Positions 8,141 to 10,102 of a stretch of 10,708 nucleotides of DNA are shown piece by piece. The number at the start of each line of letters is the position of its first letter. Position 1 is the first letter of the stretch. Origin of the DNA: a virus. Lineage: Duplodnaviria; Heunggongvirae; Uroviricota; Caudoviricetes. Under the pieces are notes generated by a model. That model searched no databases. It saw only the letters and a list, made by a program, of their open reading frames with translations, and was not told where the DNA came from. The position numbers and the translations under genes were made by a program. The stretch is taken from IMG/VR virus record IMGVR_UViG_2585427768_000002, positions 1 through 10,708 of that record, one strand, 5' to 3'.

Positions 8141-10102
8141 ATGGCATTTAAACACTATGACGTGGTCAGGGCGGCGTCGCCGTCAGACCTTGCGGAGCGA
8201 CTGACACAAAAACTGAAGGAGGGGTGGCAGCCATTTGGCAGTCCGGTGGCCATCACGCCTTATACCCTGATGCAGGCCATTGCGGCGGAAGGTGATGTCA
8301 CCACACCTGTGGTGGTGAAGCCGTCGGATGGAGAAGGCGCAGTTATCAGCACCACCAGCAACCCGGAGTATTACTTTGTTGTTGCCCTGGCCGGGCAGTC
8401 AAACGGTATGGCGTATGGTGAAGGGCTTCCGCTGCCGGAGACATATGACCGTCCGGACCCGCGTATTAAACAGCTGGCGCGTCGCAGCACTGTCACGCCG
8501 GGTGGTGCGTCCTGTAACTACAATGACATTATTCCTGCGGACCACTGCCTGCATGATGTTCAGGATTTGAGTAAGTTTTCACACCCGAAAGCTAGCGCAG
8601 CTCAGTATGGATGCGTGGGGCAGGGATTACATATCGCGAAGAAATTGTTGCCGTTTATTCCGGCGAATGCCGGTATTCTTCTGGTTCCGTGCTGCCGTGG
8701 TGGTTCTGCATTTTTGGCGGGCGATGAAGGTACCTTCAGCGAATCCACCGGCGCAAGCGAGACCTCGGCACGCTGGGGTGTAGATAAGCCACTGTACAAG
8801 GACCTGCTTACCCGTACTCAGGCCGCACTGAAGGCTAACCCTAAAAATATTCTGCTTGCAGTGGTCTGGATGCAGGGCGAGTTTGATTTGAAACAGGGTG
8901 CATACGCCACTCAGCCGGGGCTGTTTGATTCCATGGTGGAAAAATATCGTTCTGACCTGTCGGAATTCGGAGGTCAGTGTCTCGGGGGCTCTCCGTCATC
9001 GGTTCCCTGGATTTGTGGCGACACGACCTACTACTGGAAGCAGACTTATTCTTCGCAATACGATGCGGTGTATGGTGCATACAAGACGAAATCCGCAAAA
9101 AAAATCTTCTTTGTGCCGTTTATGACGGATGAAAACGGGCGAAATGTGGGTACCAACGAGCCGTCAGAAGATCCGGATGTTGCGGATATTGGGTATTACG
9201 GAGCCGGTGGTCGAACGGACGCCAAAACCTGGACGACGGCCGACCGTAAAACGCATTTTGGATCATGGGCACGTCGTGGGATTATTTCCGACCGTCTGGC
9301 AACGGCGATTCTTGTGCATGCCGGGAGAACCGCTGAATTCATTACCGGAAAACAGCCTGATACGGTGAAGCCCACCGGACCTTCCGGTGAAGGTACGGAG
9401 AGAGAGCCGGAAGCCCCGGTCAGTAACCGAACCCTGATGAGTCTGCTGGCGTCCGGCGAAGACCTGGCATCACAGGGCTGGCGCTATTATCACAAACCGG
9501 CGAGCGGAGACAATGTTAACAAAAACATTGCTGAAGCGGTGGTCAGTGATGCGGGGGCTACGGGAGGTAAGGCCCTGCAACTGAATAAACCGGAAAACCA
9601 CATCTGGTTTCTGGAGCATGATGCAGCCGGACAGGGAGTGGAGTTACTGAAGAAGGGGGGACGTGTGAGCGTACGGTTTAAGTTGCCGGGTTCACTGGTG
9701 CCGAATCGGTTTGCCCTGGGCATTTACTGGCAGTTGTCGTCCCTGCCGGAGGGAGTGACGCTGGCAGAGGAAGGCAACGACATGCTGATGTCCTTCTTCC
9801 TGCAGACGGATGCGACGAACCTGAACGCGATGTACCACAAGAAGCCGAATGCGAAGCTGGATACGTTCGGGGTCTTTGATAACGGATGGCACACACTGGC
9901 TTTTGAGTTTGCCGGAAACAACAGCATTCAGGTGACGCCGGTACTGGATGAGAAACGGGGGACGCCGTTCACACTGGTGAAATCTCCGGCATCAGGGGCG
10001 GCGGACAAACTGCAACTGACAGGCATATCAAAGGCGGCGACATATACGCTGCTGATTGACAGTGTGAAGGTGGAAGTGAACAACGCGGATGCCGCGGCAT
10101 GA
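8141..10102 (+). CDS. nanS: NanS-p-like sialate O-acetylesterase (SASA/SGNH hydrolase with N-terminal DUF1737-like region), 653 aa
   Basis: ATG at 8141 with SD GGGAGG 4 nt upstream. N-terminus MAFKHYDVVRAASPSDLAERL... and the esterase motif LAGQSNGMAYGEG (GQSN block of SASA-family esterases). Size and position (downstream of the tRNA cluster, upstream of the lysis region) match nanS-p genes of Stx-type prophages. Confidence 0.85.
   Translation: MAFKHYDVVRAASPSDLAERLTQKLKEGWQPFGSPVAITPYTLMQAIAAEGDVTTPVVVKPSDGEGAVISTTSNPEYYFVVALAGQSNGMAYGEGLPLPETYDRPDPRIKQLARRSTVTPGGASCNYNDIIPADHCLHDVQDLSKFSHPKASAAQYGCVGQGLHIAKKLLPFIPANAGILLVPCCRGGSAFLAGDEGTFSESTGASETSARWGVDKPLYKDLLTRTQAALKANPKNILLAVVWMQGEFDLKQGAYATQPGLFDSMVEKYRSDLSEFGGQCLGGSPSSVPWICGDTTYYWKQTYSSQYDAVYGAYKTKSAKKIFFVPFMTDENGRNVGTNEPSEDPDVADIGYYGAGGRTDAKTWTTADRKTHFGSWARRGIISDRLATAILVHAGRTAEFITGKQPDTVKPTGPSGEGTEREPEAPVSNRTLMSLLASGEDLASQGWRYYHKPASGDNVNKNIAEAVVSDAGATGGKALQLNKPENHIWFLEHDAAGQGVELLKKGGRVSVRFKLPGSLVPNRFALGIYWQLSSLPEGVTLAEEGNDMLMSFFLQTDATNLNAMYHKKPNAKLDTFGVFDNGWHTLAFEFAGNNSIQVTPVLDEKRGTPFTLVKSPASGAADKLQLTGISKAATYTLLIDSVKVEVNNADAAA

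Follow-up and report, generated by a model that had tools for sequence, protein, structure and literature searches.

The NanS-p proteins of Escherichia coli prophages are the closest described counterparts of the gene considered here, a nanS-p at 8141..10102 (+) of a 10,708-nucleotide stretch of viral DNA (positions 1 to 10,708 of IMG/VR record IMGVR_UViG_2585427768_000002; this whole stretch is called the window below). They include 933W Z1466/L0105, phi24B vb_24B_21/gp84, seven alleles of strain EDL933 and five of the Stx-phage-cured O104:H4 strain C227-11. According to a review, the EDL933 and C227-11 alleles are all prophage-borne and are reported to be active; NanS-p of stx-less phages gives a growth advantage on 5-N-acetyl-9-O-acetylneuraminic acid (Neu5,9Ac2), and growth on this compound is abolished once all nanS-p alleles are deleted. 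In Shiga toxin-producing E. coli, nanS-p goes up by 1-2.4 log after mitomycin C. The related NanS is a single-domain protein of ~330 amino acids (aa) encoded in the nan regulon. A module of PasD/STnc100 small RNA (sRNA), sialic acid esterase and holin/lysozyme has been described (Zhu, Shabalina and Storz, 2026 preprint); in that work STnc100 is described as a relative of PasD, an sRNA commonly found ahead of the esterase gene, and <3% of the linked chromosomal PasA sRNA copies adjoin stx. A 2026 cryo-electron microscopy preprint identifies gp84 of phi24B as a virion protein, with DUF1737 hexamers on hexons at the facet centres of a T=9 capsid; the catalytic part is removed by cleavage and is unseen on the capsid.

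The window gene very probably encodes a NanS-p-family sialate O-acetylesterase and belongs to the late operon of a lambdoid prophage that lacks stx. The open reading frame (ORF) starts with ATG, is intact and specifies 653 aa; a Shine-Dalgarno sequence, GGGAGG, is found 4 nt 5' of the start codon (8131..8136, +). An earlier note on this DNA, made from the sequence alone, had described an intact 653-aa gene with a GQSN motif, and both the ORF and the motif (residues 85-88) are exactly as it said. An ORF of such length with the E-values given below is far beyond chance. The protein is identical to RefSeq WP_000874454.1, annotated at a 100%-identical locus as 'SASA family carbohydrate esterase', and the exact 653-aa sequence is present on 484 public contigs under the title 'MULTISPECIES: SASA family carbohydrate esterase'.

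The three-domain layout of the E. coli prophage NanS-p proteins is shared by the window protein. The N-terminal DUF1737 domain (8147..8290, +; residues 3-50) matches Pfam PF08410 with E=7.5e-16 over profile positions 1-53 of 53. The catalytic domain of SASA/NanS type (8357..9313, +; residues 73-391) matches the NanS/YjhS entry 3PT5 in a PDB sequence search with E=1.4e-118, at 57% identity; the Pfam SASA profile is matched by residues 83-274 (E=6e-9, 36.2 bits vs a cutoff of 24.8). A variable, weakly conserved linker (9314..9529, +; residues 392-463) leads to a C-terminal lectin-like jelly-roll domain, DUF6645 (9530..10084, +; residues 464-648). This domain matches 6YP6, the solved C-terminal domain of phi24B NanS-p, with E=9.5e-61, and Pfam PF20350 is matched by residues 503-616 (E=1.3e-43, profile positions 1-119 of 119). 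The NanS-homologous SASA domain is thus flanked by DUF1737 and the lectin-like domain, as in NanS-p, whereas NanS consists of the catalytic domain and is not prophage-encoded. By inspection, the window protein has no signal peptide.

The catalytic residues were located by alignment with NanS, for which a structural survey of 3PT5 gives the blocks GQSNA (17-21), RGGSAF (120-125), MQGEFD (178-183) and SHFS (last residue 303) and names His301 as the base (PMC10792757). All four active-site blocks are retained in the window protein. Block I, GQSN, is at residues 85-88, with Ser87 encoded by nt 8399-8401 (+), and aligns with GQSNA 17-21; block II, RGGSAF, is at residues 186-191 (+); block III, MQGEFD, which replaces the classical Asn, is at residues 244-249 (+) and is identical to NanS 178-183; block V, THFG, is at residues 371-374, where His372 (nt 9254-9256, +) aligns with His301 of SHFS. 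Blocks I, II and III are identical to those of NanS and the block V histidine is shared. The Asp at -3 from this histidine is missing, as it is in NanS, which a review of SGNH hydrolases describes as lacking the block V Asp (PMC9487903). In the SASA family, the Gln beside the nucleophilic Ser is placed by the (H)QGE block and belongs to an inverted oxyanion hole (PMC9487903). By analogy with NanS, Ser87 would be the nucleophile and His372 the base, and the QGE block (residues 245-247) would keep Gln86 in place in the oxyanion hole. The protein carries blocks I, II, III and V of the SASA family of SGNH hydrolases (CE6-like). The identification as a nanS-p-like sialate O-acetylesterase made in the earlier note therefore stands: the catalytic residues all align and the family is SASA/NanS.

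The setting of the gene is that of nanS-p in Stx phages. The window represents a lambdoid prophage's late region, in which nanS-p follows Q and the tRNAs and precedes the lysis genes, as seen from an annotated identical locus and from synteny with a Stx2a phage (L001) and phi24B. The gene order Q - pR'/tR' - tRNAs - sRNA - nanS-p - DUF1378 - DUF826 - holin agrees with that of Stx phages and of a 100%-identical annotated prophage, and nanS-p occupies the place of the prophage NanS-p genes in general, between tRNAs (or stx) and DUF1378/DUF826/holin. The Q-family late antiterminator gene is at 3319..3690 (+; Pfam PF06530, E=3e-47) and its product shows 57% aa identity to Q of the Stx2a phage. A block at 6127..6205 (+) is 88.6% identical to the segment right after Q in the Stx2a phage and aligns with the annotated pR'/qut/terminator of phi24B, so that a pR'/qut/tR' function is suggested for it; its terminator is at 6183-6198. 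This block does not lie straight after Q but 3' of a 2.4-kb low-GC insert. Three phage tRNA genes follow at 7403..7652 (+), with a CAU anticodon, Arg-UCG and Arg-UCU according to ARAGORN, Rfam and RefSeq, and a terminator at 7667-7684. Between them and nanS-p is a full-length prophage sRNA of the STnc100/PasD family (7728..7918, +; Rfam RF02076, 140 bits vs a gathering score of 47, E=1.3e-31), which ends in an intrinsic terminator found by a terminator scan (7888-7907 plus a T-run). The gap between tRNAs and esterase gene is therefore not empty. An STnc100-family sRNA is also found directly 3' of stx2B in the Stx2a phage. The window shares with the Pas sRNA module the sRNA immediately 5' of the esterase gene, an arrangement that the preprint describing the module calls common; the Rfam match is however to STnc100 and not to a named Pas sRNA, and the holin/lysozyme part of the module is outside the window, beyond an IS66 insertion. 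On the 3' side of nanS-p, DUF1378 (10238..10432, +; Pfam PF07125, E=9e-35) is a conserved neighbour before the lysis cassette and follows nanS-p in the same order in all relatives.

No remnant of stx was detected in the window: in a tblastn search with Stx2A and Stx2B against its six frames, the best match had E=1.6. The window is collinear with the Stx2a phage apart from three cargo differences, one of which is the toxin cassette. The left flank of the cassette (L001 3001-3290) aligns to window 7402-7690 with 92% identity and the right flank (L001 4626-5199) to window 7695-8245 with 79% identity. Between these conserved flanks, the 1,335 bp of L001 that contain the stx promoter, stx2A and stx2B correspond to 4 bp in the window (7691..7694). 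The slot is bounded on the left by the terminator after tRNA-Arg and on the right by a point ~40 bp past the stx2B stop codon. In Stx-converting phages stxA and stxB lie between the tRNAs and nanS-p, and the window has neither there. These results bear out two claims of the earlier note, that the toxin genes are absent, which holds within the window, and that the prophage is a stx-negative relative of Stx phages: a full-length NanS-p-type gene lies in a lambdoid late region whose two flanks are collinear with a Stx2a phage, and the cassette is cleanly missing. The note had left it between stx lost and stx never gained. The junction at the empty slot carries no scar in the comparison with the Stx2a phage, so that loss and never having gained stx look the same, and there is no positive evidence for loss.

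The contents of this position vary among prophages. None of four graded relatives of the window nanS-p allele (99.4%, 85%, 83% and 81% nucleotide identity) carries stx. In ABU 83972 and PM4-5 the slot is filled by a TerB-family gene and a DUF3927 gene (loci L005 773-2500 and L006 1096-2500), and a junction-spanning probe placed IraM at the same position in another strain; no stx feature was present among the junction-probe rows sampled. The slot thus holds stx1 or stx2 in Stx phages, TerB and DUF3927 in some prophages of extraintestinal pathogenic E. coli, and nothing in the window. Judged from these sequence comparisons, the stretch from the phage tRNAs to the sRNA/nanS-p (window 7653-8140) is a modular, variable cargo slot.

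The frequency of nanS-p relative to stx was surveyed in 5,426 complete E. coli genomes. DNA resembling nanS-p, in a count that takes in some partial matches, was found at 6,919 places in 1,301 genomes (median 4 per genome, maximum 15), and stx1 or stx2 at 1,103 places in 759 genomes. Most nanS-p copies therefore cannot adjoin stx. The premise of the earlier note that nanS-p is usually preceded by stx does not hold; adjacency to stx is the exception. The family occurs in Stx and non-Stx prophages alike, and its presence in the latter, already known, reported as assayed and annotated in RefSeq, is typical and not exceptional. An allele at least 95% identical to that of the window is present in 262 records, among them those of ABU 83972, an asymptomatic-bacteriuria strain, and of uropathogenic strains. 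Window 1152-10539 is 100% identical to chromosomal prophages of, for example, NCCP15648, FORC_043 and NCCP 13905, and 99.9% identical in E. coli O104:H4 2009EL-2050 and 2009EL-2071. The annotated prophage of NCCP 13905 runs from integrase through lambda-type head and tail genes and has no stx. The main use of these results is as a correction: a stx neighbour is exceptional for nanS-p, and nanS-p should therefore not serve as a marker of a former Stx phage.

Selection on the gene was assessed by codon-based comparison of the window nanS-p with six other alleles, domain by domain. The ratio of nonsynonymous to synonymous substitution (dN/dS) is 0.11-0.18 in the catalytic domain and 0.13-0.22 in the C-terminal domain, and ~0.1-0.25 across the three domains; in the linker it is relaxed (0.23-0.95). 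The strongest constraint is on the DUF1737 domain, where dN=0 against three relatives with dS of 0.10-0.33. The suggestion of the earlier note that the prophage keeps a metabolic fitness factor is compatible with these values, although the phage might just as well be what the purifying selection favours, by way of a role connected with the virion. The window protein is only 60-65% aa identical overall to NanS-p of sequenced phage records (64.8% for the closest). Its catalytic domain forms a lineage of its own, with 71-73% identity to every other NanS-p in the sample and 57% to NanS; a closer relation to chromosomal NanS than that of other NanS-p was considered and rejected, all NanS-p variants being 55-57% identical to NanS.

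Comparison of the window allele with those of L007, L009, L010, L015 and L016 indicates that nanS-p alleles are domain mosaics, in which the N-domain, the catalytic domain, and the linker plus C-terminal domain recombine independently. The JNE120442 allele has the N-domain, linker and C-terminal domain of the window type and a catalytic domain of the Stx-phage type. Crossover appears to have taken place where the catalytic domain ends, in an invariant stretch that encodes RRGIISDRLATAIL. The nanS-p of two Stx phage records (L010 20270-22207 and L011 25812-27749) is split into ORFs of 268 aa and 369 aa, at a point common to both records. Inactivated nanS-p thus exists beside stx, while the stx-less window copy is intact.

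The N-domain was further compared with the type of capsid. Its identity to the window domain is bimodal among phage records, with 103 records at 90% or above and 238 at 60-80%. Eleven genomes with both genes, a small and phylogenetically non-independent sample, could be typed (L011 is uninformative, its head genes being missing and its nanS-p frameshifted). The window-type N-domain, the variant of long-tailed phages, occurs in such phages only, with either a lambda E-type capsid (L002, L009) or an S78-HK97 fusion capsid (L010, L015, L016). The phi24B-type N-domain is confined to genomes with a capsid protein of the phi24B type, Stx1 and Stx2 phages alike (L003, L012, L013, L014, L017), and L018 combines a third variant with a third fusion capsid type. 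Whatever the capsid, all Stx phages among these genomes have catalytic and C-terminal domains of the same type. That the N-domain variant tracks the capsid type supports a virion-linked role of this domain; it gives independent but weak support to the claim made for phi24B that DUF1737 anchors the protein to the capsid, and such anchoring may extend past podoviruses of the phi24B type.

These observations bear on the possibility that nanS-p mainly serves the phage, as a virion-displayed, DUF1737-anchored enzyme helping particles to adhere to O-acetylated sialoglycans or to pass through them, whether these are in mucus or on the surface of bacteria, for instance as O-acetylated sialic acid of capsules or O-antigens; the carbon gained by the host would then be a by-product. 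The presence of gp84 in phi24B virions, seen by cryo-electron microscopy and proteomics with DUF1737 hexamers on hexons, is in favour of it, as are the constraint on the N-domain, the strongest of the three domains, the independent exchange of N-domain variants that follow capsid type and not stx type, and the place of nanS-p in the late operon, immediately ahead of the genes for lysis and head; that it might help in access to the receptor has already been suggested in a review. The best-matching prophage, however, has lambda E-type head genes and its own decoration protein and not the T=9 capsid of phi24B, and the window-type N-domain occurs with two unrelated families of capsid protein. In the window protein the anchor loop has 3 residues fewer than that of phi24B, and the SISSP motif proposed for cleavage is missing. 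DUF1737 itself is present and constrained, and by analogy with capsid-decorating proteins of the gp84 type it might bind hexons. In phi24B the catalytic part itself is lost by cleavage and does not show on the capsid; for other alleles, growth phenotypes on Neu5,9Ac2 have been documented; and the prophage copy in the window looks incapable of making virions. A mainly phage-serving function is thus possible but, on balance, doubtful. A more specific proposal appears rather less probable: that DUF1737, in lambdoid prophages that are long-tailed and stx-negative like this one, may be an anchor matched to the capsid, through which the esterase is displayed or delivered on virions, nanS-p then being primarily a phage structural or host-interaction gene whose divergent catalytic domain could have another O-acetyl-sialic acid specificity, for example for sialylated surface polysaccharides of bacteria.

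As a sialate O-acetylesterase of the late operon, the protein would act as follows. Transcription would start from the pR'-like promoter at ~6127 and, under Q antitermination, pass through the tRNAs and the STnc100-type sRNA to nanS-p, which lies ~1.9 kb past the pR'-like block in the same orientation. This arrangement fits Q-dependent late expression. A promoter scan gave 17 sites vs 13.0 +/- 3.5 in shuffled controls, and no dedicated nanS-p promoter is claimed. Since the protein has no signal peptide, phage lysis is the likely route of release to an extracellular substrate, which the enzyme would most likely meet on prophage induction and cell lysis. The SASA domain is expected to hydrolyse O-acetyl esters, mainly 9-O-acetyl, on mucin sialic acids such as Neu5,9Ac2, the C-terminal jelly-roll domain is probably carbohydrate-binding, and the N-terminal DUF1737 probably tethers the protein to the phage capsid. 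The N-acetylneuraminic acid (Neu5Ac) released could feed the surviving lysogen population.

Several points weigh against this interpretation. The terminator scan places several terminator-like hairpins between pR' and nanS-p. With a catalytic domain so divergent from other NanS-p, the substrate specificity could differ, and the activity of this exact allele is presumed by analogy, the activity reports in reviews concerning EDL933 and O104:H4 alleles. In addition, the prophage copy in the window is without a repressor and replication module, and an IS66-family element lies 437 bp 3' of nanS-p; Q-driven induction and lysis-mediated release may therefore not work in this copy.

The state of the copy can be read from its two ends. 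Window 1-1153 matches early-left prophage genes, namely ead/Ea22 and the 3' end of yfdR. At junction 1152-1153 the yfdR 3' end is fused to the interior of rusA at a 2-bp TA microhomology; measured against the prophages of TOE17 and NCCP 13905, this amounts to a deletion of 8 kb, by which the repressor, cro, the replication genes and part of rusA are gone. At the other end, window 10540-10708 is the left end of the IS66-family element (tnpA from 10624), and DUF826 is cut to 32 codons with a stop at 10556. Neither junction was found in any complete E. coli genome. The junctions could reflect real decay or, for the deletion only, an assembly artefact. The window ends inside IS66, as contigs of draft assemblies often do.

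Such decay raises the question of whether nanS-p in this copy is an inert passenger, neither expressed nor useful and intact only because the decay is recent. The deletion, the insertion in DUF826 just downstream of nanS-p and the private nature of both junctions speak for this. Nevertheless, the ORF is intact with all its motifs, the identical protein is found on 484 contigs and the family is under purifying selection; Q might also be supplied in trans by other resident lambdoid prophages, and the deletion may be artefactual as stated. We therefore regard the inert state as improbable. Nor is there much reason to regard the prophage as a former Stx phage, as opposed to a never-toxin lineage, that lost its toxin genes by deletion: the cassette flanks are homologous to those of a Stx2a phage (92% left, 79% right) and repeated stx loss has been offered as one explanation for stx-less esterase modules (Zhu, Shabalina and Storz, 2026 preprint), but the junction is without stx remnant or scar, the catalytic domain is a separate lineage with dS >1 vs Stx-phage alleles, the four graded relatives are all without stx and some have other cargo in the slot, no stx appeared among the sampled probe rows, and a modular cargo slot accounts for the pattern without any loss.

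Other features of the window were annotated as well. Upstream of Q are a KilA-N gene (1492-2319) and a DUF968 gene (2321-3316). The low-GC (~35%) insert between Q and the pR'-like region (3670-6062, - strand) contains two genes, for a 391-aa protein with a YejK/NA37 nucleoid-associated domain and a 404-aa protein without a Pfam match, and its 3' end overlaps the Q stop codon by 21 bp. The pair corresponds to the NCBIfam equivalogs DS1_1 (E=2e-135) and DS1_2 (E=3e-112), each named 'anti-phage protein'; the DefensePredictor study includes a validated YejK-domain system. PADLOC (2023 version) gave no match for this pair, which NCBIfam named later. Just 3' of the pR'/tR'-like block is a conserved 65-codon ORF (6329-6526, +), and the Stx2a phage has an equally long ORF in the corresponding place (L001 1554-1751); the window ORF has only weak matches, to a TrmB-like helix-turn-helix (E=0.003) and in PADLOC (E=0.0034).

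The CAU-anticodon tRNA (7403-7478) is called Met by ARAGORN and Ile by RefSeq and the phi24B record, the trio being of the ileZ-argN-argO type. As an Ile (AUA) tRNA it would need lysidine modification. Weak Rfam matches to Esr41 (10104-10178), anti-hemB, AaHKsRNA20, sR39 and Plastid-ycf2 were far under their gathering scores and were set aside as chance or tRNA cross-matches. An AraC-type regulator of 237 aa (6661-7374, +) fills the slot of a DNA methylase in the Stx2a phage. It is nearest to YdeO (E=4e-31) and GadX (E=1e-24), both under the curated cut-offs, and could tie the prophage to acid-resistance regulation.

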